From Roseibacillus sp. (GTDB lineage Bacteria > Verrucomicrobiota > Verrucomicrobiia > Verrucomicrobiales > Akkermansiaceae), in contig CBDEUM010000038.1 in assembly GCA_965242925.1 (NCBI GenBank), positions 64,001 to 128,000 of the forward strand: a stretch of DNA of 64,000 bases. The letters are read 5' to 3'. A program made the position numbers and the translations under genes. Position 1 is the stretch's first letter, and the number at the start of each line of letters is the position of its first letter. The notes under the pieces were generated by a model. That model made no database searches, had not been told where the DNA came from, and saw nothing but the letters and a program-made list of their open reading frames with translations. Shown here piece after piece: positions 7,849 through 34,942 of the stretch.

Positions 7849-10149
7849 ATGATTGATGAGATCAGTCAGCGTCTTCTCGATCGAACCTGTCCGATGCGGA
7901 TTCATCTGCTGGGGGTGGCGGGGTCGGGTATGAGCGGCCTGGCGGCCCTCCTCCTTGAAATGGGGCACAGGGTGAGCGGATCGGACCGGGTCACCAGCCG
8001 CGAGACCGAGCGCCTGCAGTTGCTGGGCCTGTCGTTTTCCTCCCCCCACTCTGCGGAGGCGGTTTCCGATGTGGAGGTGGTTGTTTATTCCTCGGCGATC
8101 AAGCCCGATAACGTGGCTCTGGTGGCGGCGGACCGGGCAGGGATCCCGTCTGTCCGTCGGGCCGAGTGCCTGGCGGCCATCCTGCAGACCCGGAAGGGCG
8201 TGGTGGTTTCCGGTACGCACGGAAAGACCACCAGCTCGGCCATGTGCGCGCACGTGCTGAAGAAAAGCGGAAGGGCCATATCGCACTACGTGGGGGCGGA
8301 AATTCCAGTTTTGGGGGCAAATGCCCACTGGGACGAGGAGAGCGATTACCTCGTGGCGGAAGGAGATGAGAGCGACGGCACCCTGGCCCTGTACCGACCT
8401 TCACATGCCATCGTGCTCAACATCGAGGCAGAGCATCTGGACTTTTACAACAATCTCGAGGAAATTGTGGAAGTCTTCCGGACCCTGCTGGAGCAGACCT
8501 CGGAGAAGATCATTTACTGTGCGGAGAACGTTACGGCACGAGAACTTTGCAGCGGGCGTGAAGGAGCTCTTTCATATGGATGGGATGATGCTGACTTTAC
8601 GGCCTCCGATGTGACCGAGGGGCGCGGGGTGATCTCCTTCACGGTGTGGCGGCGGAGCGAGAAACTGGGGCGGGTGGAACTCGGCATTCCGGGACGGCAC
8701 AATGTTCTCAATGCGCTGGCGGCCATTGCGCTGGCTGACGACCTGGGGGTGGATTTCAGCCTGGTGGCGCGTTCCCTGGCCTCCTTTGCGGGAGCAAAGC
8801 GCCGCTTTGAGTCTGTCTACCTCTCCTCGCGCTTTCGCATTATTGACGACTATGGGCATCACCCGACCGAGATCGAAGCGACCCTGCAGACGGCGCATTC
8901 ACTGGAGCCGGAACGAATTGTTGTGCTCTTCCAACCGCACCGGTATTCCCGGACGCAGCAACTGGCGGAGGAGTTTGGAGTGGTGTTGCAGGACGCGGAT
9001 ATTGTTTTTGTGACGGACGTCTATCCGGCCAGCGAGGCACCCATTGAGGGTGTGAGCGGCAGGACGATCGTGGAGGCGGTGGAGCGCCATGGGAACACCA
9101 AGTGTGTATACCACCAAGACCTTACGACTGCCCATCACGTGGTCGGCAATTCGCTGCAACCGGGAGACCTTCTCATCACTCTGGGGGCAGGAAATGTGCA
9201 TGAAGCGGGAAGGAAGATTGCGGATGACCTGGTCCTGTTGGAGGCGTTACGGAGTGAGTTTGACGAGGGAAAGCTGGAGGCCCGACTCTACGAGGCGATG
9301 CGGCGGCACACCACCATGCTGGTAGGAGGACCAGCCCAGTTCTGGGTGGAACCACGGACTTTTCCGGCTTTCGGGCGGGCAGTCGCTTTTTTTAAAGAAC
9401 GGGGTGTTCCGGTGCGCGTGGTGGGACGGGGTTCAAACCTTCTGATCCGTGACGGGGGCATTCGCGGGGCCGTTATTCATCCGGCCAAGGGCGAGTTTGG
9501 CGAAGTAACGGTGGAGGCTGAACTGCTTACCGCCGGGGCGGGAGCGCGCTTAAAGAAGGTGGCCAGTGTGGCGGAGGCTGCGGGACTGGGAGGTTTTGCC
9601 TGGATGGAGGGTATCCCCGGCAATGTGGGTGGAGGTTTGCGTATGAACGCTGGGGCAATGGGGTTGGAGACATTTGACCAGGTGGTGAGCGTGATGTTCC
9701 TCGACGAGGACGGCGAGATCCGTACCCGTTCGCGTGGTGAGATTGAGGCCTTCTACCGCAATGTCCCCAAACTCCATCGCAACTATGCCTTGCAGGTGAT
9801 CTTTCGCGGGATACCGGCCGGGATGGAGGAAATCCGCGAGGAGATGTCAGAATCCAGAAATCATCGCCGCAGCACCCAGCCGGTGGCAGCCAGTGCGGGT
9901 TGCATCTTCAAGAATCCCGATAGGATCGGGGCCGGACAACTCATTGACGAACTGGGATTGAAGGGCAAGAGGGTCGGACAAGCCGAGGTTTCGGCCGAGC
10001 ATGGAAACTTCATTGTAAACCGGGGGAAGGCCGAAGCCAGCGATGTGCTCCGGCTTATTGGTGAACTGAAGGCGGAAGTGAAGGAGAAGCGGGGGATCGA
10101 CCTGGAAACGGAAGTTCAGATCCTGGGGGAGGACCAGGTGAGCTTTTGA
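7849..10149 (+). CDS. murC-murB: MurC-MurB fusion (UDP-MurNAc--L-Ala ligase plus UDP-GlcNAc-enolpyruvate reductase)
   Basis: N-terminal GVAGSGMSGLA, GTHGKTTS, DDYGHHPTEI, FQPHRYSRT; C-terminal GRGSNLL, GIPGNVGG..MNAGA, SAGCIFKNP, HGNFIVN; ATG at 7849 preferred. Confidence 0.94.
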   Translation: MIDEISQRLLDRTCPMRIHLLGVAGSGMSGLAALLLEMGHRVSGSDRVTSRETERLQLLGLSFSSPHSAEAVSDVEVVVYSSAIKPDNVALVAADRAGIPSVRRAECLAAILQTRKGVVVSGTHGKTTSSAMCAHVLKKSGRAISHYVGAEIPVLGANAHWDEESDYLVAEGDESDGTLALYRPSHAIVLNIEAEHLDFYNNLEEIVEVFRTLLEQTSEKIIYCAENVTARELCSGREGALSYGWDDADFTASDVTEGRGVISFTVWRRSEKLGRVELGIPGRHNVLNALAAIALADDLGVDFSLVARSLASFAGAKRRFESVYLSSRFRIIDDYGHHPTEIEATLQTAHSLEPERIVVLFQPHRYSRTQQLAEEFGVVLQDADIVFVTDVYPASEAPIEGVSGRTIVEAVERHGNTKCVYHQDLTTAHHVVGNSLQPGDLLITLGAGNVHEAGRKIADDLVLLEALRSEFDEGKLEARLYEAMRRHTTMLVGGPAQFWVEPRTFPAFGRAVAFFKERGVPVRVVGRGSNLLIRDGGIRGAVIHPAKGEFGEVTVEAELLTAGAGARLKKVASVAEAAGLGGFAWMEGIPGNVGGGLRMNAGAMGLETFDQVVSVMFLDEDGEIRTRSRGEIEAFYRNVPKLHRNYALQVIFRGIPAGMEEIREEMSESRNHRRSTQPVAASAGCIFKNPDRIGAGQLIDELGLKGKRVGQAEVSAEHGNFIVNRGKAEASDVLRLIGELKAEVKEKRGIDLETEVQILGEDQVSF

Positions 10150-23102: not shown

Positions 23103-24517
23103 TCACCCCGGAAATCGTAACAGATGATGCGTGGCGGAGCCCGGGTGAGCAAGTCGGGTTCGTTCTGGGAGATGTAGAGCAGTCCCTTGTGGAGGGTGGG
23201 GAGGGTCCAGCTGGAGCGGGCGGCAAAGAGGCGGACCTTCTGGAGGATTTCCGCGCCCTTGGGAGTGACCTTCAGTTCGGCCAGCACGCCGTCCTCCCCC
23301 AGGCAGAAGACCCGTCCGTCGGCCTGCAGGAGACTGCCGCGGAAGAGCCCGTGGGTGCGTCCGGCCTCCTGCCATTGCATGTCCTCTTCCCAGAGGATCT
23401 TGCCGGTGGCGGCATGGGCACACTTGAACTGGGTGTCCGGGATATTGCGTCCGGCGAAACCGTAGAGATGACCATCGATCTGGAGGGGCATCATCCAGTG
23501 CATGCCGAACCAGCGTTCCTTCCACACCACCTTCGACTTGAGGTTCTTGTCATACTCGAGAACTACCCCACCCACTCCATAGCAGTCACCGAGGTAGATG
23601 CGCCTGTCGCTGAGGATGAGGGGAGAGGAGGCCAGAACGGATTCGTGTTTGTCGGCCCGCCAGGGAAAGCGGTCGTAGACCTTGCCGGACTTGACATCGA
23701 TGACGAGAAGGCCGCCGTGTGGCGGACGGCTTTCGCCCGCGGCGGCCACCACCGCGCAGTCGACACCCTGCAGTTTGGTGATGGTGGGGGAGGCGTAGCT
23801 TGCGCCCCACGAATCCTTCACTTCCCAGAGGGTGCTGCCGTCCTTCACGGAGAGGGCTGCCACACAGACACCCGGTTCCTCCCCGGCCGCCCGGCCGCCT
23901 ACGTTGAGGATTATGCGGTCCTGCCAGACGGGACTGGGACTTGGCCCGTAACCGAAGAAGTAGGTGGGAATATTGTAATCTTTCTGCAGGTTACGCTTCC
24001 AGAGGACGGCTCCTGTCTCCAAGTCGAGACAGTGGAACATCCCGGTGATCCCGGTGACATAGACCCGTCCCTGATGCACTACTGGACTGGAGCGGGGTCC
24101 GGGACTGAAATTGTAGCGGTCGCGGTAGGTGACGGGATACTTCACGCGCCAGTGACGCTTGCCGGTGTCCGGATCAAGGCAGTCGATGGCCTCCTCCCCT
24201 GTGCCGGTGAGCGTGCTGTGATTGAGGCGATGGAAGTAGATCAGTTTTCCCCCGGCAAGGAGGGGGCTGGAATACCCCTCACCGGTTTCCAGTTCCCAGA
24301 CTTTCCTGGGTCCGCCCGCCGGCCATTTGCTCAGGAGCTTGGTTTCCCTGGAGGTGGCGTTGTGACGGTCTCCCAGGAAACGGGGCCAGTCCTCGACCAC
24401 CGCTCCCCCGGCGAGGGGCTTGGGGGCGGTATGGAAGGTCAGTTTCAGTTCCTGACCGGGACCGGGAAGCGTGCTGAGAAGAAGGACAAGCGAGGCGACG
24501 AGGATGGTTGGATTCAT
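23099..24517 (-). CDS. Secreted PQQ-like/BamB-like beta-propeller protein
   Basis: Signal peptide MNPTILVASLVLLL; DWPRFLG, GYSSP, CLDPDTGKRHW and CLDLETGAVLW blade repeats; track start at 24673 abuts the tRNA so ATG at 24517 preferred. Confidence 0.8.
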   Translation of the reverse strand: MNPTILVASLVLLLSTLPGPGQELKLTFHTAPKPLAGGAVVEDWPRFLGDRHNATSRETKLLSKWPAGGPRKVWELETGEGYSSPLLAGGKLIYFHRLNHSTLTGTGEEAIDCLDPDTGKRHWRVKYPVTYRDRYNFSPGPRSSPVVHQGRVYVTGITGMFHCLDLETGAVLWKRNLQKDYNIPTYFFGYGPSPSPVWQDRIILNVGGRAAGEEPGVCVAALSVKDGSTLWEVKDSWGASYASPTITKLQGVDCAVVAAAGESRPPHGGLLVIDVKSGKVYDRFPWRADKHESVLASSPLILSDRRIYLGDCYGVGGVVLEYDKNLKSKVVWKERWFGMHWMMPLQIDGHLYGFAGRNIPDTQFKCAHAATGKILWEEDMQWQEAGRTHGLFRGSLLQADGRVFCLGEDGVLAELKVTPKGAEILQKVRLFAARSSWTLPTLHKGLLYISQNEPDLLTRAPPRIICYDFRGE

Positions 24518-24673
24518 GGCGATTCGCTTGCGGTGAGGGTCCCACGATGGAAATACGGCGTCCAGACGTAATGAGGGGTCGCAGGGAAACTGTTGTTTCC
24601 TGATGAGGATTGGCTTGATTTTCGCTCGTTGCGCCCCTAAGCCTCCCGCCCACTGTGAAGGAAACCTCCTCAT

Positions 24674-24757
24674 GCTCGGGTGGCGGAATTGGTAGACGCG
24701 CTAGATTAAGGATCTAGTGGGGTAATACCCGTGGGGGTTCGAGTCCCCCCTCGAGCA
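24674..24757 (+). tRNA. tRNA-Leu, anticodon AAG; CCA not encoded
   Basis: Acceptor GCTCGGG/CTCGAGC plus discriminator A; D-arm GGCGGAATTGGTAGACGC; anticodon arm CTAGA-TTAAGGA-TCTAG; long variable arm; T-arm GGGGG-TTCGAGT-CCCCC. Confidence 0.95.
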
Positions 24758-24943
24758 CTTCCTTTTTTACAGGGCCAATCGGCCCTGGAGCGGTTATAGG
24801 AGCCGGGAGGAGAAAGAGGCTATTGCCCTTATACTACCCCTAAACGGCGGCTATACAGCCACAGAAAACCCCCGGAGCGCGGCGGGAAAAATCAATGGCA
24901 CCGTTGCCCCCTGCGCCTGGAGCGTGCTAGGAGTCGCGGTGCT

Positions 24944-26149
24944 ATGAAGATACTCGTCCTGCTGTTTGCCGCGCTACTGGTCGCGGGATGCGGTGAGAAG
25001 GAGCAACCCAAGGAGCAGGAAAAATCGGAGTCAAATCCGAAGGAGGAACCGAGTCCCGAGGCGAAGGCAGAGCCCAAACCGGAATCTGCGCCAGAATCGA
25101 GGGAACTTCCTCCGCTTCCCGAGACCGTGACCGCGGAATTCATCATGGGTCTGTGGGCCAAGCCGCATGACGGGACAGAGGTCATGGAGGAGTTGAAGGA
25201 TTTTGCACTCAAGCCGGGTATCTGGAAGGTCGTACGCAATATCGGTCCCAGCAAGGAAGAGCAGGTTCAACGCATCGAAGCCTCCGCCACATTGAAGTCG
25301 GTCGACCGGCGCTTTGTAGCGCAGGAATTTTCCCATGATGCCGGGGTCCAGTATTCGGTGATAACCTATGATTACGAAACGGAGAGCTATCGTTGGTGGG
25401 AGTTGCATCCGGATGGCTTCATCAATGAGTTTTCCGGAAAACGGTATTGGCGCAATCTGATGGAATGGAAATCGGTGAGGCTCCGTGAAGAGGACGTGCA
25501 GACGCGAATGCGTGAGACGGTCCGGGGGGAGAAATCATTCAAGGCAACCCTTGAGATCAAAAAGGGAGGAGAACTGGTGGCTTACGCTGAAGACGATGCG
25601 ACTTGGATCTCGGAGTTGGGGCCATCGGAGGAAGCCCAGCAGGAGGTTAAGCCTGAAGAACCCGTTGCTGAAACTAAACCTAAATCGACCTTAGTCGTGC
25701 ATGCACCCATTGAGACAGCTATTCGAAAAGTTCTTAATTACCCTAAAGGGAAACTGACCAAGCTAGACTTGAGGAAAGTGACAAAACTGGAAATCAATAA
25801 TAGGCAAATAACTGATTTGAAAGGGATTGAGAAGCTAGCAAATTTAAAAGAATTGGAGCTCAGGGACAGCGGGTTGACTGACGTTAAAAGCCTAGAGGAC
25901 CTAACCCAATTAGAAGTGCTGTTTCTAACTGAAAACAAACTGACCAATGTTAACTACATAGGAAATCTCAGGAATTTGAAAGTATTAGCTCTTGAAAACA
26001 ATGAGCTCACTGATGTGAAGGGGCTTGAGAAACTCACGAAGTTAGAGTGGCTTTATCTCGAAAATAATAATCTCACAAAGGTGCAAATTGCCGAGCTTCA
26101 AAAGGCTTTGCCAAATTGTAAAATCTACCCCAAAGCAAAATCTAAATAG
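24944..26149 (+). CDS. Mosaic lipoprotein: lipobox, unknown beta-rich domain, QQEVKPEEPVAETKPK linker, internalin-like LRR C-terminus
   Basis: MKILVLLFAALLVAGC lipobox; LxxLxLxxNxLTDV repeats; GC drops after about 25650. Confidence 0.8.
   Translation: MKILVLLFAALLVAGCGEKEQPKEQEKSESNPKEEPSPEAKAEPKPESAPESRELPPLPETVTAEFIMGLWAKPHDGTEVMEELKDFALKPGIWKVVRNIGPSKEEQVQRIEASATLKSVDRRFVAQEFSHDAGVQYSVITYDYETESYRWWELHPDGFINEFSGKRYWRNLMEWKSVRLREEDVQTRMRETVRGEKSFKATLEIKKGGELVAYAEDDATWISELGPSEEAQQEVKPEEPVAETKPKSTLVVHAPIETAIRKVLNYPKGKLTKLDLRKVTKLEINNRQITDLKGIEKLANLKELELRDSGLTDVKSLEDLTQLEVLFLTENKLTNVNYIGNLRNLKVLALENNELTDVKGLEKLTKLEWLYLENNNLTKVQIAELQKALPNCKIYPKAKSK
25637..25655 (+). repeat. 19-bp sequence CAGCAGGAGGTTAAGCCTG, copy 1 (inverted copy at 30143-30161)
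   Basis: Exact reverse-complement match read by eye. Confidence 0.9.
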
Positions 26150-26152
26150 GTA

Positions 26153-26333
26153 TTCCAATTACTCCTACAAAGACGGCATGCCAGATGGCCCCTGGACGGG
26201 GTGGGACGAGAACGGACAGAAGCAGTCCGAAGGAACCCACAAAGACGGCGAAGAGGTTTCCGCGAAATACTGGAACAGCAAAGGCGAAGAGGTTCGTTCA
26301 CATGATGAAACGTTCGAAGAGGCAGACGAGTAA
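26153..26333 (+). pseudogene. Orphan C-terminal fragment of a MORN-variant (YwqK-like) repeat protein
   Basis: YKDGMPDGPWTGWDENGQKQSEGTHKDGEEVSAKYWNSKGEEV; no credible start; begins right after the LRR gene stop. Confidence 0.75.
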
Positions 26334-26397
26334 CACCCCCGCTCCCTCAATCACGGGGCAGCAAACAGGGTGCGGTGCACGGGTTAAGGGTGCGGGG

Positions 26398-26610
26398 CTA
26401 CTGCACGCTAAAGCGGAAGAAGGCGGCGTTGTCGGTAGGCGCAAATTCCAGGCAGATGCTGCCGTCGACCACCGATAGCGATTCAGGGTTCACGGTGAGG
26501 GGTGCAAAGGTTTGCAGGTTAGCCGACTCAAAGAGGTTGAACTCCATTTGCACGTTTCCTGCCTCGTTCAAACCAATCGTGTAATCCGCTGACAGGGCAC
26601 GGATCTGGTC
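26398..26610 (-). pseudogene. Orphan 70-codon C-terminal domain, similar to the C-terminus of 30361..32292
   Basis: Hand translation DQIRALSADYTIGLNEAGNVQMEFNLFESANLQTFAPLTVNPESLSVVDGSICLEFAPTDNAAFFRFSVQ*; in-frame TAG upstream at the IS junction; absent from the ORF track. Confidence 0.75.
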
Positions 26611-26782
26611 CTAGATGAATCGGGCGTCGTGATCGAGGAATGGCGACGCTTTTACAACCGGGTCCACCCTCACAGCGGAATGGTCTTCCAAAGCCCGGAG
26701 GCCTTTGTCAGAACCATGACGCAACTAGAACCAGTCCCCGGAACCTAACATTCAAATTGGCCCAGAAAGAGTGTCCCGATCA
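26611..26782 (+). mobile_element. IS3-family remnant: transposase C-terminus and right end
   Basis: LDESGVVIEEWRRFYNRVHPHSGMVFQSPEAF matches the IS3 integrase tail (WR..YN..RPHS.L...P); followed by an end sequence finishing ...GATCA. Confidence 0.8.
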
Positions 26783-26817
26783 AGAGGTCGGCTCATGGCA
26801 TAGCTAAAACGTTAGCT
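26783..26817 (+). other. Right half of an integron attC site, truncated by the IS3 end
   Basis: L' GCATAGC, 6-nt spacer TAAAAC, R' GTTAGCT; same layout as 27985-28004; 25 nt before the next ATG. Confidence 0.6.
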
Positions 26818-26842
26818 GGAATAACTGAAATTGCCCTCGAGA

Positions 26843-27883
26843 ATGAAACCACCTGTATTCGCATTATTCTTAATACTATGGACGTCTTGTTTTGGCGCGC
26901 CGGATAAGGAATCCGCACCAGATTCTGAGTTTTTCACCCTGATCGTTCTGCCTGACACTCAAGGTTATGCTGACATCAGGCATAAGGAGACACAGAAGCA
27001 CTGGCCGGGCATTGGTGATCAGCGTTCCTGTTTCTATAAGCAGACTGAGTGGATCAAAGAAAACAGGCTGAAGCTGAATATCGTCATGGTGGCTCATGTT
27101 GGAGATATCACTCAGACAGATCACGATGAAGAATGGAAGATAGCCGATGCCGCTTTCAAGACCATTGATAACCACGTTCCCTACATATTGTGCGCGGGAA
27201 ATCATGACATGGGGTATTCACCGCAACATCGTAAGACAAGTCATTCGCGTGAAAGCCGTTTCAGCTCCTACTTCAAACCTTCGCGTTTCACAAAGAATCC
27301 TTTGTACGACTCGCATTTCGGCAGCGATAGGAATCTTCATTTTCGAGAAGAAGGGAAGATTGAAAACTACTACCTCTTTCTAAAAGCAGGAGGGATGAAG
27401 TTTCTCATTCTCACTCTGGAATTCAAACCTCGGGATGAAACCCTTGCGTGGGCGAATAAGGTTGTTGCGCAGAATCCTGATTACCGGACCATCATTGTCA
27501 CACATGGTTATCTAACGGGAAAAAAGGGACAACGGACAGGTGTTGACAGCTATTTGGTGAAAGGCAACTCAGGGAAATCAATCTGGGAGAAATTCATCAG
27601 CCATCACAAGAACATCTTTCTGGTTCTTTCAGGACATGCCCTGGAGAATTTGCTGACCAGCAAAGGCAAGAATGGAAATACGGTGCACCAGGCTCAGGCC
27701 GATTACTGGTATTGGGACATCCCTGAGATCAAGGCGGGGAGCGGTTTCTTGCGCATCATGACTTTCCGTCCTGACAAGAACACGATTGATGTTCAGACCT
27801 ATTCGCCTGTACTGGATAGATTCCTCACACGTCCCAAAAGCAATTTCTCGTTGGATTACCTCATGCAGGACAAGAAGAAATAG
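26843..27883 (+). CDS. Secreted calcineurin-like metallophosphoesterase
   Basis: Signal peptide MKPPVFALFLILW; LPDTQ, VGD, GNHD, THGY and SGH metal-binding motifs. Confidence 0.85.
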   Translation: MKPPVFALFLILWTSCFGAPDKESAPDSEFFTLIVLPDTQGYADIRHKETQKHWPGIGDQRSCFYKQTEWIKENRLKLNIVMVAHVGDITQTDHDEEWKIADAAFKTIDNHVPYILCAGNHDMGYSPQHRKTSHSRESRFSSYFKPSRFTKNPLYDSHFGSDRNLHFREEGKIENYYLFLKAGGMKFLILTLEFKPRDETLAWANKVVAQNPDYRTIIVTHGYLTGKKGQRTGVDSYLVKGNSGKSIWEKFISHHKNIFLVLSGHALENLLTSKGKNGNTVHQAQADYWYWDIPEIKAGSGFLRIMTFRPDKNTIDVQTYSPVLDRFLTRPKSNFSLDYLMQDKKK

Positions 27884-27947
27884 AGCCATTGGTAAAAACT
27901 GATGCTATTACTGACTGTGGATTTCTAACGAAAACTATGAAAATAGG

Positions 27948-28004
27948 ATCTGACAAGGAGCAGAAGGCGACGGACAAGGCCGCGCCTTAGCTTGAACGTT
28001 AGCT
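27948..28004 (+). other. Integron attC recombination site, 57 bp, slightly degenerate
   Basis: R'' ATCTGAC, 5 nt, L'' GCAGAAGG, stem CG(A)CGG-ACAAGG-CCGCG, L' CCTTAGC, 6 nt, R' GTTAGCT; two unpaired bases at the aadA-type positions. Confidence 0.75.
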
Positions 28005-28033
28005 AACAGCTAAGGCACCCAAGGAGATTCAAA

Positions 28034-28981
28034 ATGCCAATTATTCTACCACCGATCACTCGCCGTCAATTCGTTAAGGGCTCGCTCGCTCTTGGCGGCA
28101 CGGCAATGATGACGCCTTGCGCGTTGGCCGCCGCCGCGGATAGCGAACGTGTTGGGCTGGACCCAAACCGAGTTGCTTTGCTTGCGGACACGCACATCAG
28201 TGCCGATCCGGATCTTGTCTACCCGGGCACGAAGTGGCCTGGTTCGCCCGTCAAGGGGGGCGAGCATGAAAGCGTGCATATAGTAAAATGCCTTGTACAG
28301 TCGGCCAAGAGCGTAATCGCACTCAATCCTCGACCCTCTCATCTGATCGTCAACGGCGACTGCACCTTCGGCAGGGGTACTGAAGCCGAGTATAAACAGT
28401 TTCTCAAGCTTGTGGAGCCGATTCGTGCCGCGGGCATTACCATTCATGTGACAATCGGCAATCACGACAATCGTGGGAATTTGTGGAAATTACTCCCGTT
28501 CCTTAAGAAAGAGCACATGGGCGTTCAGGCGGGCGTGATTGAACTGCCGCACGCGAACCTCGTACTGTTGGACTCGGGAAATGGAGCCCTGGGAGACAAA
28601 CAGTTGAACTGGCTCGCCAAACAACTCGACGAAGGAGCGGATAAGCCAGCCCTTATCTTTAGTCACTACAACCCGTATAACAACCGCGGCGTGCGTCCCA
28701 TCAAGGGCATGCGTGATGGATCGTCTCTGTTGAAACTTCTTGCCGAACGAAAGCATGCCAAGGCCTATTTCTATGGGCACACGCATGAGTGGCAGCATGA
28801 TCGACTGGACCATCTCCATCTCATTAACCAACCGGCAGTCAGCTACTATTTCGGAAAAGGCCATGCGCATGGCTGGGTCGATATGAAGCTCACTAAAACT
28901 TCCGCTGACCTAGAGTTGCACTGCATCAACCGCACACACAAGCAGCACGGTGATCGGAGACAGGTCAGCTTGAAGGACTAG
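28034..28981 (+). CDS. Tat-exported Icc/CpdA-like metallophosphoesterase
   Basis: TRRQFVKG twin-arginine signal; ADTH, NGD, GNHD, SHY and GHTH motifs; SD AAGGAG. Confidence 0.85.
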   Translation: MPIILPPITRRQFVKGSLALGGTAMMTPCALAAAADSERVGLDPNRVALLADTHISADPDLVYPGTKWPGSPVKGGEHESVHIVKCLVQSAKSVIALNPRPSHLIVNGDCTFGRGTEAEYKQFLKLVEPIRAAGITIHVTIGNHDNRGNLWKLLPFLKKEHMGVQAGVIELPHANLVLLDSGNGALGDKQLNWLAKQLDEGADKPALIFSHYNPYNNRGVRPIKGMRDGSSLLKLLAERKHAKAYFYGHTHEWQHDRLDHLHLINQPAVSYYFGKGHAHGWVDMKLTKTSADLELHCINRTHKQHGDRRQVSLKD

Positions 28982-29068
28982 AAGACATAGAGTTAAATGC
29001 GCCGCCGCTACGCGTTGCTCTTGAGGGGCAGCGTGAACAAAGAATCTATCGAATAGAAGGAATTTAGA

Positions 29069-29884
29069 ATGAGAGCCATAAAATCATTATCCCTTGTTGT
29101 TACATGCTTGTGCGGAGCAACACTCTGTCTTTCCGCTCCAGTGCCTGACAAGCCCATTACGGTTCGTGTTGCTTCTTATAATGTTGAGTTCGGCAAAAGC
29201 GCGACCCCGGAACAAATTGGAGAGATGTTCAAGCCATACAAGCTGGATATCATCGGTTTTGACGAAGCTCCAGATGGTGATTGGACGGCTCGCGTCGGTA
29301 AGGTGCTGGGGATGCAATATAGTTTTGTGGGCAAGATCTCTTCGGCAAATCACAAGAATAAGTACAAGACGGTTCTCAGCAGGACACCGTTAGAAGGTGA
29401 TGAAGAACACAAACTCACGGGCCGGGGCTGGAATCCCGCGTCGGTTGTCAGAGCTGTGACTAAGATTGATGGAGTTTCATTCGCATTTTACTCACTGCAT
29501 ATCTGCAAGTCGGGCGCAAATGATGGCCATGCGCATAGCCTTGCGACCAAGGTTCTACCTGAGGAGGCAACTAAGAGGGTTATCGTCGTTGGGGATTACA
29601 ACAACAACATTGGCGACGCTGCCATGAAAACGGTCGAGGGGGCAGGATTTAGACCAACGTGGAACGATCTGAAGATTGATCTCTCCAAGGAGTTTACATA
29701 CAACGCCCAGAATCCCAAAAAGAATTTGGGTGTGATCGATCACATTTTGTACAACAACCTGTCTGGAGCCCAGGCAATAGCCGGAGGCATAATCGAACTA
29801 GAAAAGCCTTTGTCTGATCACAAACCAATCTGGGCGGAGATCGTATTCCCTCGAAAACTCAAGAAGGTGAAGGGCTCTGAATAG
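29069..29884 (+). CDS. Secreted endonuclease/exonuclease/phosphatase (EEP) family protein
   Basis: Signal peptide; ASYNV, DE, GDYN, IDHI and SDHKPI motifs. Confidence 0.85.
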   Translation: MRAIKSLSLVVTCLCGATLCLSAPVPDKPITVRVASYNVEFGKSATPEQIGEMFKPYKLDIIGFDEAPDGDWTARVGKVLGMQYSFVGKISSANHKNKYKTVLSRTPLEGDEEHKLTGRGWNPASVVRAVTKIDGVSFAFYSLHICKSGANDGHAHSLATKVLPEEATKRVIVVGDYNNNIGDAAMKTVEGAGFRPTWNDLKIDLSKEFTYNAQNPKKNLGVIDHILYNNLSGAQAIAGGIIELEKPLSDHKPIWAEIVFPRKLKKVKGSE

Positions 29885-29919
29885 ACGGGACGTTATTGAT
29901 TGCTAAGAATTTCCTTTCT

Positions 29920-30176
29920 GGGGCCGGTGCAGGCGTTGAAGGCAGCTGTTCCGATGCTGGTGACGCTATCGGGGTCGTGATGCTCGTCAGGCTGGTGCAT
30001 AGCAAGAAGGCCCCATCCCCGATGGTGGTGACCGATTTGCCTTCAATGAGCGCAGGAATCACCAACTTGCCCGATGCGTCTTCGTCACAGCCAGTGATAG
30101 TGACCGCATCACCTTCGGTCTGATACTTTAAATTGGGGTCAACAGGCTTAACCTCCTGCTGTTTTTCTTCGACGGC
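29920..30176 (-). pseudogene. Frameshifted BspA-type (LRR_5) fragment starting with the QQEVKP linker
   Basis: AVEEKQQEVKPVDPNLKYQTEGDAVTITGCDEDASGKLVIPALIEGKSVTTIGDGAFLLCTSLTSIT, then frame change to PDSVTSIGTAAFNACTG; no start codon. Confidence 0.8.
30143..30161 (-). repeat. 19-bp sequence, copy 2 (inverted relative to 25637-25655)
   Basis: + strand reads CAGGCTTAACCTCCTGCTG. Confidence 0.9.
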
Positions 30177-30360
30177 CTAGGGTGCGGTGCAGGCTGTAAG
30201 CTGCAAAGGTTCAGTTATCAGTGTTTCGGCTCCGTTGTCCAGTTCGCCGTGATGAGCCTGCTTGGAAAGGGCCTGGGCAGCCTTTTCGAGGCGCTCAAGG
30301 CGTTCGTGAAGGGCTTTGCCCTTTCCTTCTCTATCAGGTTTCTGATAGATCAGGAGTTAT

Positions 30361-32292
30361 ATGAAATCGCTCCTTGCTCTTCTGACTCTCTTTGCGTGCG
30401 CAGTCCTGCCCCTCCAGGCGGCTGATGTCAGCGATCTGACTTACACCACGGATGATGGGAGGGTCACCATCACCGATTGTGATGAAAATGCCTCCGGGGA
30501 ACTCCTGATTCCAGATGAGATTGAAGAAAACACCGTCACTGAAATCGGAAGCGGTGCCTTCTCTAACTGCGCCAGTCTGACGAGCATCACGATTCCCGCT
30601 GGGGTCACCGTCATCGGGAGCAGTGCGTTCAATGCATGCTCCAGCCTGACGGGCATCACAATTCCTGAAGGGGTCACCAGTGTTGGTAGGAATACCTTCT
30701 CTAGCTGTGCCAGCCTGACAAGCGTTACAATTCCTGATAGTGTCACCGCCATCGGAAGCGGTGCCTTCTCTAACTGCGCCAGCCTGACGAGCATCACGAT
30801 TCCTGAAGGGGTCACCAGTGTTGGTAGGAATACCTTCTCTAGCTGTGCCAGCCTGACAAGCGTTACAATTCCTGATAGTGTCACCGCCATCGGAAGCGGT
30901 GCTTTCCAACTCTGCACCGGCCTGACGGGCATCACGGTTCCTGCCCGCGTCACCCGCATCGAGGAAAAAGCGTTCCGAGAGTGCGCCAACCTGACGAGTG
31001 TTACCTTTCTTGGTTCAGCTCCAACCGTGGGCAATCTGGCCTTCGACAATTTAGGGGACGGGGTACAGGCAATCGTGACACCTGAGGAGAGGGCCTCCTT
31101 TGGTGATGCCGGTTCCTTGTGGAATGGGTTGCTCATCGTGGACTGTATGGATGCTCTGTGCATTCTGACTTGGAGCACGGACGATGGGGCGGTCATCATC
31201 ACCGATTGTTATGAAGAGGCCTCCGGGGACCTCCTGATTCCAGACACGATTGAAGGAAATGCCGTCATTGGAATCGGGAGTAATGCATTCGAGGACTGCG
31301 CCGGCCTGACGAGCGTTACAATTCCTGCCGGGGTCACTGTCATCGATACCAGTGCATTCGAGAACTGCACCAGCCTGACGAGCGTTACGATTCCTGCCGG
31401 GGTCACTGTCATCGATACCAGTGCATTCGAGAACTGCACCAGCCTGACGAGCGTTACAATTCCTGCCGGGGTCACTGTCATCGATGCCAGTGCCTTCGAG
31501 AACTGCACCAGCCTGACGAGCGTTACGATTCCTGCTGGGGTCACTGTCATCGATACCAGTGCATTCGAGAACTGCACCAGCCTGATGAGCATCACAATTC
31601 CTGACAGCGTCACCAGGATCGAAAGTCGTGCTTTCGCTGAATGCAGCAGCTTGGCGAGCGTTACTTTCGGGGAAAATAGCGCGTTAACCTATATCGGGGG
31701 CAGTGCTTTCACTGAATGCAGTGGTCTGACGGGTATCACAATTCCTGATAGAGTCACCAAGATTGAGGAAGACACCTTCTACGAGTGCACGAGTCTGACT
31801 GCTGTTAAGGTGGGACGCAGTGTTTATGAGATTGCTTCTGGAGCTTTCCAGAACTGTATCAATCTGTCGGAAGTTGAATTTCCCATGGGAGCTCCAGGAG
31901 AAGTGCATGTAACTTCTTTTCTCAACATCGCGGTCGGAGCCCGGGCCGTTGTTTTGCCTGAGTATTCTGCGAGCTTCGGGACCTTGGAATCGAATCTCTT
32001 CAATTTTACCCCGGTCTGGAACAACCTTGTTGTCGCTGACGGGGAGGAAGTTCCTGTCCCTTGTACGCTTGAGCAACTGCAAATACTCGCTGCTGGGGAC
32101 CCGGTCCTCAGGAAGGATCCAGATGGGTCTTTCCGGCTAAGTTTTGGCCTGCAGAAATCCACAGATTTGGAGACCTTTGTTCCATTAGATCTCTCCGGGC
32201 TTAACCCGACGATCAACGAGCAGGGGAAAATAGAGTTGCGGCTCATTTCCATAGAAGACACAGCCTTTTTCCGACTCCAATTTGGGAACTGA
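30361..32292 (+). CDS. Secreted BspA-type leucine-rich-repeat (LRR_5) surface protein with two LRR modules
   Basis: Signal peptide; many C.SLTSVTIP.GVT.I...AF 23-aa repeats; SD AGGAG; C-terminal QKSTDLETF...AFFRL domain. Confidence 0.9.
   Translation: MKSLLALLTLFACAVLPLQAADVSDLTYTTDDGRVTITDCDENASGELLIPDEIEENTVTEIGSGAFSNCASLTSITIPAGVTVIGSSAFNACSSLTGITIPEGVTSVGRNTFSSCASLTSVTIPDSVTAIGSGAFSNCASLTSITIPEGVTSVGRNTFSSCASLTSVTIPDSVTAIGSGAFQLCTGLTGITVPARVTRIEEKAFRECANLTSVTFLGSAPTVGNLAFDNLGDGVQAIVTPEERASFGDAGSLWNGLLIVDCMDALCILTWSTDDGAVIITDCYEEASGDLLIPDTIEGNAVIGIGSNAFEDCAGLTSVTIPAGVTVIDTSAFENCTSLTSVTIPAGVTVIDTSAFENCTSLTSVTIPAGVTVIDASAFENCTSLTSVTIPAGVTVIDTSAFENCTSLMSITIPDSVTRIESRAFAECSSLASVTFGENSALTYIGGSAFTECSGLTGITIPDRVTKIEEDTFYECTSLTAVKVGRSVYEIASGAFQNCINLSEVEFPMGAPGEVHVTSFLNIAVGARAVVLPEYSASFGTLESNLFNFTPVWNNLVVADGEEVPVPCTLEQLQILAAGDPVLRKDPDGSFRLSFGLQKSTDLETFVPLDLSGLNPTINEQGKIELRLISIEDTAFFRLQFGN
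30661..30902 (+). repeat. Intragenic tandem duplication, 138-bp period
   Basis: ATTCCTGAAGGGGTCACCAGTGTTGGTAGG... at 30661 and 30799, identical for about 100 bp. Confidence 0.85.
31305..31590 (+). repeat. Intragenic tandem repeat, about 4 x 69 bp, near-identical
   Basis: CCTGACGAGCGTTAC.ATTCCTGC.GGGGTCACTGTCATCGAT.CCAGTGC.TTCGAGAACTGCACCAG at 31305, 31374, 31443, 31512. Confidence 0.9.
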
Positions 32293-32569
32293 TCTGCCGT
32301 CTTGCCTGCTCCAGGTGACTAGCAGGCACAAAAAGTCACCGGAACGCAGGTGGAAGAAATCCACGTGGTATCCCAGCCTGCCGACCCGTTCCGATGCCTT
32401 GGCCGAAAACCAATTTCCCTTCCGCAACTATCCGGAGGACTTCAGTAAAAGGAGGTCGTCCGCAAATTCATTGGGAATGAGCATGAGGCAGAAAGTCCTC
32501 TCTTGACCAGAGAGTAAAACAGTTTCCCCTGTCCGGTCAGGAACCCGCTTTATCGACAGGACAATCGCC

Positions 32570-34942
32570 ATGAAAAATTACGTCGTATCATTCCGCAGTT
32601 TCGCCCCAGCCGCCCTCTTCACCATCATTGGTGGGGGGCTTCTCCTCAATTCAGCTGGAGCAGAGACCGTGTTCAGCCAGGACTTTGAAAACGGACTCGG
32701 ACCGGATGAGTCGGTGAGCGGATCGTTCAGCATCAACGACAGCCTGGCCTCCATCAACAACGGAACCCTCGTGATGGGGCACTCCGTTCCCTACGGAGCT
32801 CTGGGAGGGGCTGCAACTCCGCTGCCCGCCTACTCCTACTACGAACTGACGCTGGACTTGCGCGCCTTCACCGATGTCGAAATGCGCTTCGATTTCAGTG
32901 GAGCGATTGAAAAGGACTACGACGGATTCAATCTCATCGCGACGACCGAGCCCCAGGTATCGCCACCGACGGGACTGCTCACCCCGGCGGCCGGGTCTGC
33001 TTTCCAGTATGACGCGGATGCTCTGGTCCAGCATGGCGCTTCATCTCCAGAACTCGGAGCGATCGCCTGGTCCTCCCCTGCAGATCCGTCTATCGTGGTG
33101 AAGGACCTCGCCGCCGTCTTCGATCTCTCTGCCTTCAATGAGGAGAAGGTCATCATTCGCTTTCAGTTCGGCACCGATGCCTTCGAAGGCGGGGAAGGAG
33201 CCAATTTCGATAACATCGTGGTGGAAGGAACCTCTCTACCGGATACCGACAGCGACGGCATGCCGGATTCCTACGAGGACCGGCACGGCCTCGACCCGGC
33301 CACTGACGATGGCATGGAAGACCTGGACATGGACGGTGTCGCTAATCTGGAGGAGTACAACAACTTCACCGACCCCAATGATCCCGACACCGACGGTGAC
33401 GGACTTGATGATGGTGCCGAAACCAACACCGGTGAATTCGTCTCTCCCACCAACACGGGAACGGATCCCAGGAATCCGGACAGCGATGGCGACGGACTGG
33501 AGGACGGTGACGAAATGAACAACATCGGAACCGACCCCAATAAGGCAGACACCGACGGAGACGGATTTGAAGACAAGACGGAAATCGATCTCGGCGGGGA
33601 CCCGAGGGATCCGAGCGTCAAGCCGCCCGTATGGGTGATCGAAGATCTGGGTACCGGGACAGCAGCCCTCATCGGTGGCGACCTGACCGATCCTGAGGAC
33701 GACGGGGTGGAAGGAAACGTTCCGGGGGACGGGGATTGGACTTCGCTCAACTGGAACTGGATCAGCATCGAAGCCAGTAGCGAGAATTACTTCGGCAACT
33801 TCGGTGGTGGCGAAGGAGCATACGATGTCTTTGATAATACGATCGGTCCGGGCCAGGCAAAATGGTGCTGTGACGGCGCTCCGCAGTGGATTACGGTGGA
33901 GTTTGAGATTCCGATCTCGCTGGAATCCTTCACCCTTGCTTCGGGCAATGACGTTCCCGGCCGCGATCCGGTCAAGTGGGGGATCTATGGATCCAATGAC
34001 AACGAGACCTTCGATCCCATCTTCGAACAAGACGATCCGGGGTCTCTCTGGCCACAGCGCTTGCAAGTCCTGCACTTCATCAATCCACGGCGCGCCAAGC
34101 CTTACAAGTTCATCAAGTACCAGGTGGACACCCAGGCTTCTGGCGGCAATCACCAAATCAACGAGATCGAGTATTTCGGTACCACGACGGTGGAAAAGGT
34201 CTTCTTAAGCGTCGACCGTTCCCCCGTAGATTCAGGCATGCTCCGCCTCGGTTGGAACGGTCAATCGGGGAAGGTATACGACGTTCTCGCCAATCCCGAT
34301 CTCTCCTCGCCGGTCGAAACCTGGACCAGGCTGGACGGTGCGCAGGACATCCCCTCTGATCCTTCCGGCGACAACGTCCTGGACATTGCGTTCCCCTTTC
34401 CGGGAACGGGCTATCTGGCGATCCGTGAGAAGGATGCTCCGCCGCTCTTCTATGACGACCTCGAATCAGGAGCAGGTGATTGGACGGCTCGTGTCAACGA
34501 CGACAACAACAACACCCAGTGGGAACTGGGCGCCCCGAACGGAACAAGCGGCCCGCTCACCGGCGCCGATGACTCTGCCACGGCCTGGAGCACCAACCAG
34601 GGAGACTATGGTCCGGACTCCGATATATCTCTCCGTTCACCGTCGATCGACTTGAGTGGACTGGATGCGGCTGTTCTCAAGTTCGATCAGTATCGGGACG
34701 CTGACGGATTTTCCGATACAGCCACCATCCGCTTCCTGCGCGCCAGCGACCAGACTCAACTTGGCGCGGATATTTCCATCGACATGACGGCCCTGGACAC
34801 CGGTTGGAATCCAGCTTCCGTTGCGGTCCCGGCGGCGGCTCTGGGCGAGTCGGTTCTGGTTGAGTTCCAGTTTGTCAGTGATGGCAGTGCGGACGCCTTC
34901 AGTGGGTTGTCCCTCGACAATTTCGAGCTGAGCGCAAACTGA
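32570..34942 (+). CDS. Secreted multidomain protein with DxDxDG (thrombospondin type 3-like) calcium repeats and lectin-like beta-sandwich domains
   Basis: Signal peptide; DTDSDGMPD, DTDGDGLDDG, DSDGDGLEDG repeats; discoidin-like PQWITVEF...RDPVKWGIYGSND...QINEIEYFG; FDNIVV and LDNFEL jelly-roll ends. Confidence 0.75.
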   Translation: MKNYVVSFRSFAPAALFTIIGGGLLLNSAGAETVFSQDFENGLGPDESVSGSFSINDSLASINNGTLVMGHSVPYGALGGAATPLPAYSYYELTLDLRAFTDVEMRFDFSGAIEKDYDGFNLIATTEPQVSPPTGLLTPAAGSAFQYDADALVQHGASSPELGAIAWSSPADPSIVVKDLAAVFDLSAFNEEKVIIRFQFGTDAFEGGEGANFDNIVVEGTSLPDTDSDGMPDSYEDRHGLDPATDDGMEDLDMDGVANLEEYNNFTDPNDPDTDGDGLDDGAETNTGEFVSPTNTGTDPRNPDSDGDGLEDGDEMNNIGTDPNKADTDGDGFEDKTEIDLGGDPRDPSVKPPVWVIEDLGTGTAALIGGDLTDPEDDGVEGNVPGDGDWTSLNWNWISIEASSENYFGNFGGGEGAYDVFDNTIGPGQAKWCCDGAPQWITVEFEIPISLESFTLASGNDVPGRDPVKWGIYGSNDNETFDPIFEQDDPGSLWPQRLQVLHFINPRRAKPYKFIKYQVDTQASGGNHQINEIEYFGTTTVEKVFLSVDRSPVDSGMLRLGWNGQSGKVYDVLANPDLSSPVETWTRLDGAQDIPSDPSGDNVLDIAFPFPGTGYLAIREKDAPPLFYDDLESGAGDWTARVNDDNNNTQWELGAPNGTSGPLTGADDSATAWSTNQGDYGPDSDISLRSPSIDLSGLDAAVLKFDQYRDADGFSDTATIRFLRASDQTQLGADISIDMTALDTGWNPASVAVPAAALGESVLVEFQFVSDGSADAFSGLSLDNFELSAN

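Follow-up and report, generated by a model that had tools for sequence, protein, structure and literature searches.

Inverted 19-mers at a lipoprotein locus of Roseibacillus sp.: probable truncated copies of the tether of a modular family

Does a pair of short inverted repeats that joins a lipoprotein gene to a start-less reading frame form an invertible switch, or do the two copies merely go back to one linker shared by related genes? The question is raised by a locus of Roseibacillus sp., where an exact 19-nucleotide (nt) sequence lies within a lipoprotein gene and again, inverted, 4.5 kb away at the head of a frame encoding leucine-rich repeats (LRRs) of the BspA type. The locus is part of a stretch of 64,000 nt, here called the window, which covers positions 64001-128000 of contig C38 (CBDEUM010000038.1) of assembly GCA_965242925.1. 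This genome is denoted G000; in our labels C stands for contigs of G000, G for genomes, L for loci and P for protein clusters. A first interpretation made from the letters of the window (the sequence-only reading) had proposed a shufflon-like layout, in which inversion of the segment between the repeats could swap the C-terminal domain of the lipoprotein.

We consider it likely that the inverted 19-mers are differently truncated copies of the core of a tether, i.e., a linker rich in E, K and P, in a modular lipoprotein family confined to a narrow clade of marine Akkermansiaceae, and that this tether acts as an evolutionary joint rather than as a switch. The locus itself we judge to be static today.

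The two copies and the tether core

The 19-mer CAGCAGGAGGTTAAGCCTG occurs once on each strand of the window (Table 1). Even with up to three mismatches allowed, these two matches remain the only ones, and 100 shuffles gave a mean of 0.02 matches, with none reaching two. At 81% identity, the inverted repeat can be followed over 36 nt (25628-25663 and 30135-30170). Both copies encode QQEVKP in codon phase 0, the first in the plus-strand gene that starts at 24944, the second in a stop-to-stop frame on the minus strand (29859-30176) that reads AVEEKQQEVKPVDPNLKYQ... / AVEEKQQEVKPVDPNLKYQTEGDAVTITGCD.... Positions, inverted orientation and common codon phase were all given correctly by the sequence-only reading, and its hand counts of G+C for three stretches of 60 nt around a drop at copy 1 (34/60, 24/60 and 20/60) are exact on recount.

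A third exact copy was found elsewhere in this genome, on contig C30 (318048-318066). It lies in a broken gene of the family that carries the complete core, opens with the common signal peptide MKMLVLLFAALLVAGCG and reads ...SEEVKPVEEKQQEVKPEEPVAETEKPE, followed by a small domain. On its 3' side, this copy matches copy 1 over 42 nt at 97.6% identity, and on its 5' side it matches copy 2 over 39 nt at 92%. Thus, the whole segment is present on C30, while each window copy represents one half of it. The core comprises approximately 56 nt, namely GTCGAAGAAAAA, the 19-mer and AAGAACCCGTTGCTGAAACTAAACCT, and reads VEEKQQEVKPEEPVAETKP. Judged by these alignments, the 19 nt are best described as the overlap of two differently truncated copies of one longer tether core. 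Copy 1 would have kept the 3' part of the core, at the point where a stand-alone barrel lipoprotein was fused to a tether and a low-GC LRR_4 module; copy 2 would have kept the 5' part, heading a dead tether-BspA gene. In alignment A1, the orthologues of the lipoprotein gene in G011 and G015 hit a stop codon inside or next to the position of the 19-mer. The caveat of the sequence-only reading, that the pair may be a relic or a shared paralogous linker, describes the window better than its proposal of a switch.

The gene around copy 1 is intact and belongs to the type of protein cluster P0001 (401 residues, 98% identical, 11 members). It is of mixed composition: GC content amounts to 55.4% in the N-terminal part (24944-25636) and 38.5% in the LRR part (25682-26149), compared to 60.1% for the genome. 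A signal peptide with lipobox and Cys, MKILVLLFAALLVAGC/GEK, was read from the sequence. The G011 and G015 orthologues have another signal peptide, for which this leader was substituted in the window gene. The Pfam scan gave no family for the following domain (N-domain), and LRR_4 together with related families in the C-terminal part only.

A structure model of the N-domain, built on an alignment of 40 homologues, shows ten strands at a predicted local distance difference test score (pLDDT) of 89.4 and a predicted template modelling score (pTM) of 0.84. In Foldseek, it matched OlmO (7sfn, template modelling score (TM) 0.66-0.67) and nitrobindin (2a13, TM 0.62) with E-values of 2e-5 to 1e-4 and 10-13% identity, and TM values range from 0.62 to 0.67 across OlmO/OssO spirocyclases, nitrobindins and fatty-acid-binding proteins. 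The N-domain can be taken as a calycin-like barrel by fold alone, which does not imply ligand binding. Among proteins of 132-422 residues, 90 homologues of it were found. In most of them the N-domain is a stand-alone lipoprotein ending at the tether, which is also where the G011 and G015 orthologues stop; 86 proteins have 132-282 residues, and four, with 379-403 residues, are fusions. The full-length short homologues P0002 and P0005 end in ...EE(A)(Q/S)EEE. We note that no Pfam model covers this family, whose roughly 90 homologues come from marine metagenomes.

For LRR_4 (PF12799), the C-terminal module scores 56.8 bits, well above the gathering threshold of 27 bits (residues 279-386 of the 401-residue protein; E 2.1e-15). 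Its counterpart P0091, 92% identical, is a stand-alone lipoprotein of 219 residues composed of leader, tether and LRR_4. A search for the module in 400 genomes of the family retrieved only the window itself at E<=1e-30. The lack of a close relative in these genomes, combined with a GC content of 38.5%, points to a foreign origin of the module. Its arrival could have involved two steps. An LRR_4 cassette would have replaced the front of a tether-MORN gene, as suggested by the MORN remnant directly behind the gene (Table 1) and by L043, a leader-tether-MORN gene that departs from the window sequence right after AETKPK. The resulting tether-LRR_4 gene would later have been fused to the barrel gene via a similar E/Q-rich 3' end, of the GAAGCCCAGGAGGAGG type seen in G011. 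The MORN remnant also follows the N-domain-tether-LRR_4 gene in L037.

The frame headed by copy 2 was described by the sequence-only reading as start-less and decayed, in accordance with the features collected in Table 1. It is about 80% identical at the nt level to the BspA gene in L041, with the junction VEEKQQEVKP/VDPNLKY common to both. The L041 gene is intact, encodes 685 residues in the order leader-MORN-tether-BspA, and scores with LRR_5 (PF13306). For the 105-residue frame of the window, a Pfam scan including LRR_5 gave no family at E<=0.01; its identity as BspA is deduced from the similarity to the L041 gene and from a cap shared with the L019 gene, the latter read by eye only. By this comparison, 29859-30176 (minus strand) is best classified as the relic of an L041-like gene.

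Partners of the tether and domain swaps

If the core is a joint, its other copies should reveal what it joins. The sequence-only reading had suggested collecting the 19-mer and its flanking domains in the genome and its relatives. Doing so yielded the third genome copy, one congener (G012) and 16 family genes in metagenomes, and the partners vary. The exact 19-mer occurs on 23 Joint Genome Institute (JGI) metagenome contigs; 16 hold family genes with the 19-mer inside the core, and 7 are unrelated chance matches. Calls for the domains on either side are based on Pfam LRR_5 or MORN_2 for L033, L041, L043, L047 and L048, and on reading by eye for the remaining loci. Upstream of the core, the N-domain was found twice (L035, L037), another domain of about 190 residues three times (L033, L038, L052), leader plus MORN once (L041) and the family leader alone three times (L032, L040, L043). 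The other seven loci (L039, L045, L047-L051) show other lipoprotein signal peptides, of four kinds. Downstream, there are 11 cases of BspA, two of LRR_4, one of MORN (L043), one of the small domain known from C30 (L032) and one broken frame (L045). Taken together, the core is known from three copies in the genome, from G012 and from 16 metagenome contigs, with at least five upstream and four downstream types of partner.

The most direct case of an exchange is given by the proteins in which the N-domain is fused to a further domain. There are four such fusions: P0001 with LRR_4, P0011 in the order leader-MORN_2-N-domain, P0029 with another C-terminal domain of unknown type, and P0038 with BspA LRR_5. 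P0038 reads N-domain-EEEVKPTEEAP-VDPNLKY...BspA. It shares 172 of 178 N-domain residues (97%) with the gene in L037, up to the point ...ISELGPPEE, where the two part: P0038 continues into BspA repeats, the L037 gene into AQQEVKPEEPVAETKPK and LRR_4. Hence, the fusion of N-domain and BspA predicted by the sequence-only reading occurs in nature. Fixed pairings of N- and C-terminal domains are refuted, because one barrel allele carries LRR_4 on one contig and BspA in another protein. The sequence-only reading had also inferred that the linker acts as a recombination joint for combinatorial surface lipoproteins. On an evolutionary scale this holds, as the pairings vary and switch at the tether, and the linker is accordingly best regarded, from sequence comparison, as such a joint; flipping at this particular locus is not supported.

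P0011 (403 residues), a metagenome protein, shows the reversed order leader, MORN_2 repeats, spacer and N-domain. It reveals a further joint, located within the spacer GENP(S/T)AP..., and the same spacer precedes the tether in L041.

How such exchange proceeds is indicated by DNA identity between the window and L037. In bins of 60 nt, identity is 95-97% at 25087-25206, drops to 55-83% at 25207-25566 and rises to 93-100% at 25567-26226. The last stretch starts at 25567, ahead of the tether, and continues across tether and LRR_4 module as far as the MORN remnant at 26226; breakpoints also lie inside the barrel. Such mosaic identity speaks for ordinary homologous recombination between alleles and not for a site-specific cut at the 19-mer. 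For reference, efficient RecA-dependent exchange in Escherichia coli usually requires identity over more than 19 bp.

The second shared element is the leader. It spans about 105 nt, with approximately 47 nt of 5' untranslated region (UTR), the lipobox signal peptide MKxLVLLFAALLVAGCGEK and the sequence GEKSSSEGSES. By blastn, it was found at 79-93% DNA identity at three loci on C30, two on C34 and four on C23, making 10 places in the genome including the window. C23, a contig of 15.4 kb, thus holds four copies. The mature parts behind the leader are unrelated to each other and comprise a 495-residue MORN_2 protein, a 199-residue BspA protein and several truncated genes. The leader was also observed in many congeners. 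Furthermore, L032, L040, L043 and L048 show tight tandem arrays of family genes, each gene with its own leader and two to three leaders within 1.3-1.9 kb, an arrangement that is easiest for unequal crossover and gene conversion.

From these observations, a family gene would consist of the leader or another signal peptide, an optional first globular module, the E/K/P-rich tether and a variable C-terminal module, which may be BspA LRR_5, LRR_4, MORN_2 or a small domain. Modules would be exchanged among paralogues and strains by homologous recombination of the RecA type or by gene conversion, with leader and tether serving as portable homology; fusions over short homology, as well as deletions within the repeats of the tether, may also contribute. 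Tether length indeed varies through loss of sequence between short repeats, of which GTTAAGCCTG is present twice; variants are seen in L041, L048, P0091 and P0038.

The distribution of the core is narrow. Searching 201 genomes of the family with up to two mismatches, we found true copies only in G012 and in the own genome, other matches remaining at the level of a reversed-pattern control. Among the 18 congeners, likewise with up to two mismatches, G012 alone has a true copy and one other match is at control level. The G012 copy differs from the 19-mer by one mismatch and lies in an intact gene of signal peptide, tether and BspA. In a collection of species-representative genomes, the exact 19-mer gave four matches, all in unrelated phyla and approximately the number expected by chance according to a hand estimate. 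Restriction to the own genome and G012 among 201 genomes indicates that the element is limited to a narrow marine clade. In NCBI sources, the homologues go under 'Roseibacillus sp.' and 'Akkermansiaceae bacterium'.

Recombinases, orientation and rival explanations

The sequence-only reading had remarked that the window is without a recombinase, and the Pfam scan of its 42 open reading frames (ORFs) confirms this, having returned no recombinase family. In the assembly of 4.58 Mb (89.9% complete), PF00239 (resolvase/invertase) and PF01548 (IS110/Piv-type) gave no match. Tyrosine recombinases (PF00589) gave three matches, on C13, C31 and C30 only, and none on C38. Two of these proteins, with 303-321 residues, were taken as XerC/D-like by size alone; the third, with 411 residues, lies at C30:199841, 118 kb from the C30 copy of the 19-mer. 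No recombinase family was found by Pfam in 27 ORFs neighbouring family genes on eight metagenome contigs. As a separate observation, L047 contains an ORF cut by the end of the locus (9453-10019, plus strand; MGAQYGHMAYLYKRGRIYWVKF...), 4.4 kb from the tether-BspA gene. By eye, it resembles the N-terminus of a phage-type integrase, and it has no Pfam match at E<=0.001.

An active switch, in which a site-specific recombinase inverts the 4.5-kb segment and so alternates LRR_4 and BspA C-termini, would explain why exact inverted 19-mers lie in frame at a domain boundary, why the partner has no start codon, and why a fusion of N-domain and BspA exists in a relative (P0038). However, we regard it as very improbable. 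Inversion in silico does join the two frames, as the sequence-only reading had expected, but the product is the N-domain plus one LRR unit, followed by an out-of-frame tail and a stop. There are two repeats only, the partner is dead, each junction exists alone elsewhere, and enzyme families of the required kind are missing from the window ORFs, from contig C38 and, for PF00239 and PF01548, from the assembly; nor did the ORFs surveyed next to family genes, from a set of 16 metagenome contigs with the core, add a candidate. The fused LRR_4 form is stable in the cluster of 11 sequences and in L035 and L037, and the P0038 junction, EEEVKPTEEAP, does not correspond to what a crossover in the 19-mer would give. 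The proposal of a shufflon-like invertible layout at this locus was thus not upheld. Another rival is a single past inversion, in which an N-domain-BspA fusion gene (plus strand) and an inverted leader-tether-LRR_4 gene (minus strand) underwent one homologous crossover at their tethers; the BspA product would afterwards have been deprived of its leader and have decayed. A reciprocal exchange would account for the four flanks, with N-domain and tether meeting at copy 1 and tether and BspA cap at copy 2, and proteins corresponding to either parent are known (P0038-like and P0091). Nevertheless, this scenario appears unlikely. The N-domain-tether-LRR_4 gene with the MORN remnant downstream is present in L035/L037 in another genomic context and without an inverted partner, and VEEKQQEVKP/VDPNLKY is likewise found in the intact L041 gene without one. 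An un-inverted arrangement was found neither in G015, where synteny covers only the part from the SDR (short-chain dehydrogenase/reductase) gene to the N-domain gene, nor in G011 or in G004, where the context differs. As both junctions occur independently elsewhere, an inversion is not needed.

Two further explanations concern the repeat itself. The core might be preserved as DNA in its own right, as a hotspot or dedicated site of recombination served by an unknown enzyme, beyond the conservation expected from recent copying. It is the best-conserved segment: pairwise identity is 95-96% in the unascertained core flanks, a value biased upward since the loci were ascertained by the exact 19-mer, against 93.5% in the upstream spacer, 82-83% in the BspA cap and 76% in the repeats. 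Many switch points coincide with the edges of the core. We nevertheless hold this to be improbable and give it little weight, as both silent and replacement changes are present (K>E, P>S and V>A in G012; V>L plus silent changes in L043), the length varies by deletions, only one of 18 congeners has a true copy, breakpoints fall inside the N-domain too, and no candidate enzyme is linked. A broader variant would be that the clade maintains both the leader of about 105 nt and the core of about 56 nt as portable joints for combinatorial exchange of N- and C-terminal modules, with the core selected as DNA or served by an unknown recombinase and inverted pairs flipping occasionally; this, too, we find quite unlikely. 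Chance or convergent likeness of two low-complexity linkers rich in E, K and P could be argued from the nature of the peptide and from the unrelated matches, i.e., 7 of 23 in metagenomes and all four in the genome collection. It is refuted by the homology of the flanks, which for either copy match one and the same family core over 31-46 nt, and the shuffles of the window never produced two matches; its probability is practically negligible.

Besides the ascertainment bias, several points weigh against our preferred explanation of truncated tether copies. The layout does match that of an invertible C-terminal switch, with repeats in frame, a start-less partner and the P0038 fusion in nature, and a genome that is 89.9% complete leaves room for an unassembled recombinase. 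RecA-type recombination as the agent is something that we infer. Judged solely by the LRR, MORN and calycin-like domains, the most likely role of the proteins would be that of tethered binding modules on the cell envelope. Orientation was assessed on 23500-32500 with assembled Logan contigs of four metagenome runs from four studies (X18, X1, X3, X6), and contigs of this kind drop rare variants. No joint at 25655/30142 appeared among the 15 of 43 joints listed, which on assembled contigs is a weak test. One joint between opposite strands, 25682/30145, was seen on one contig of one of the four runs (X1). By its coordinates, this joint would connect tether and BspA cap in frame, which is what a paralogue with the full tether gives. 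The loose ends 'ACGGGTTCTT' before 30143 (X18, X6) correspond to the C30 copy of the own genome, and those behind 30145 (X3, X6) resemble other tether variants (...AVSVDPNLKY). The Logan joints and loose ends weigh neither for nor against inversion.

More generally, when an inverted repeat lies in frame and its partner has no start, the repeat can be nothing more than the stretch in which two truncated paralogous linkers overlap. Collecting the other copies of the repeat together with their flanks is the test that separates a switch from a linker.

Surroundings and known systems

The genomic context of the two copies is summarized in Table 1. The tRNA-Leu gene marks the left edge of a variable island of lower GC content. 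Synteny with the congener G015 covers genes for an SDR protein, an alcohol dehydrogenase (ADH), a pyrroloquinoline quinone (PQQ) propeller protein, the tRNA and the N-domain protein, and ends just behind the latter. The island contains several gene remnants, among them the 3' end of a transposase gene of an IS3-family insertion sequence (IS); the intact copy (L053, C29:363500-367500) encodes orfA (99 residues) and orfB (284 residues) at 1477-2624. This stretch is decaying and rearranged, a fitting place for relics. The intact BspA-type gene to the right of the relic is the source of many inverted and direct LRR repeats in the region. Rfam detected only the tRNA in 24000-33000, and a scan for promoters and terminators in 24600-26900 remained at shuffle level.

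Table 1. Features of the locus in window coordinates, with further copies of the leader on other contigs of the same genome
Feature	Position	Strand	Description or basis
tRNA-Leu (anticodon AAG)	24674..24758	+	ARAGORN; Rfam tRNA 55.3 bits
Family leader: ~47 nt 5' UTR and lipoprotein signal peptide MKILVLLFAALLVAGC-GEK	24897..25000	+	blastn; eight copies aligned
Further leader copies	C30:317617, C30:321015, C30:341839, C34:307377, C34:40505, C23:13206, C23:9045, C23:4007, C23:154		
Intact chimeric lipoprotein gene, 401 residues: leader, calycin-like N-domain, tether, LRR_4	24944..26149	+	ORF; Pfam LRR_4; cluster P0001
N-domain, predicted 10-stranded beta-barrel of calycin type, no Pfam family	25091..25636	+	Structure model and Foldseek
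19-mer copy 1 (QQEVKP)	25637..25655	+	Left flank of N-domain type, right flank of tether type (alignment A1)
Tether core, 3' part (QQEVKPEEPVAETKPK)	25637..25681	+	46 nt 100% identical to tethers of BspA genes in L040, L047, L048
LRR_4 ('internalin-type') module	25682..26149	+	38.5% GC; 92% protein identity to P0091
3' remnant of MORN_2-repeat family gene	26150..26333	+	Other frame, directly behind the stop; Pfam MORN_2 7e-4; blastn 82-87% to MORN genes on C34 and C23
3' end remnant of exported-protein gene	26387..26640	-	80.6% over 288 nt to C30:331153-331440; translation read by eye
3' remnant of IS3-family transposase orfB	26624..26782	+	95% over 159 nt to intact IS on C29
Three intact exported-protein genes between the repeats	26831..29884	+	Pfam; GC 45-57%
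Calcineurin-like metallophosphoesterases	26831-27883, 28034-28981	+	
Endonuclease/exonuclease/phosphatase-family (EEP) protein	29069-29884	+	
Relic of tether-BspA lipoprotein gene	29859..30176	-	No start codon, no signal peptide, stop directly upstream, 1-nt frameshift near 29985, truncated after about two LRR units beside the EEP gene
19-mer copy 2 (QQEVKP)	30143..30161	-	Upstream flank of tether type (GTCGAAGAAAAA = VEEK), downstream flank BspA cap (alignment A1)
Intact BspA-type LRR protein, 643 residues, ordinary signal peptide	30361..32292	+	Pfam LRR_5 1.5e-123; divergent from the relic; not a tether gene

In G004, a homologue of the EEP protein (68% identity of residues) lies 8.5 kb from a fragment of the N-domain gene and in opposite relative orientation. 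As evidence of an un-inverted ancestor it was rejected, since the genes lying in between are unrelated. A C-terminal segment ...AFFRF/AFFRLQFGN, noticed by eye, recurs on exported proteins, namely the 643-residue BspA protein (32100-32292, plus strand), C30:331153-331440 and the remnant at 26387-26640 (minus strand); it might serve as a tag for sorting or anchoring.

For annotation, it follows that the 401-residue gene should be listed as a recent chimera, 29859-30176 as a pseudogene and 26150-26782 as three gene remnants. Beyond the locus, the findings describe a modular lipoprotein family, apparently undescribed, in abundant marine Verrucomicrobia, whose modules (barrel, LRR, BspA and MORN) change partners at a linker that is almost identical as DNA. 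One clean natural swap of the C-terminus on a 97%-identical N-domain provides a tractable case for domain shuffling of surface or envelope proteins in free-living bacteria.

Three known systems invite comparison. The sfx repeats of shufflons are about 19 bp long, and the rci gene adjoins them. The shufflon of IncI1/IncI2 plasmids, with Rci invertase and sfx repeats, is described as giving C-terminal variants of PilV (PMC5430464; bioRxiv 10.1101/2024.10.25.620183). Our locus resembles it in having short in-frame inverted repeats between a constant N-terminal part and start-less alternative C-terminal segments of a surface protein. It differs in that no tyrosine recombinase is found on the contig, that there are two repeats and not a cluster, and that the partner segment is dead.

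In the variable lipoprotein families of mycoplasmas, 5' UTR and signal peptide are strongly conserved among the members. These families include Vpma/Xer1 in Mycoplasma agalactiae and vsa in Mycoplasma pulmonis, and inversions at the MBA locus of Ureaplasma belong to the same context (PMC2268961, PMC5634654, PMC3047005). The likeness consists in surface lipoproteins with a common 5' end and variable mature parts, and in chimeras arising by recombination at short repeats. The known systems feature a linked site-specific recombinase and high-frequency switching of expression within a clone. Here, in contrast, intact genes each carry a leader of their own, no linked recombinase was found, and variation was seen between strains, species and paralogues, not within a clone.

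In polymorphic toxins of the Rhs/CdiA type, C-terminal modules are displaced at a conserved upstream stretch, and start-less orphan modules lie nearby. No toxin or immunity domain was found in our case, where the modules are LRR_4, BspA LRR, MORN_2 and the calycin-like barrel, and the orphan is inverted rather than direct, and decayed. A reading as arrays of immunity proteins for polymorphic toxins (MORN_2/YwqK, LRR) was also considered; the window showed no toxin gene. By analogy, however, Rhs/CdiA may well be the closest counterpart in mechanism, as a conserved stretch in front of a variable C-terminal module would act as homology for recombination. Seen against these systems, what the sequences describe is best termed a mosaic modular family of surface or envelope lipoproteins with an unusually clean pair of joints at the DNA level.

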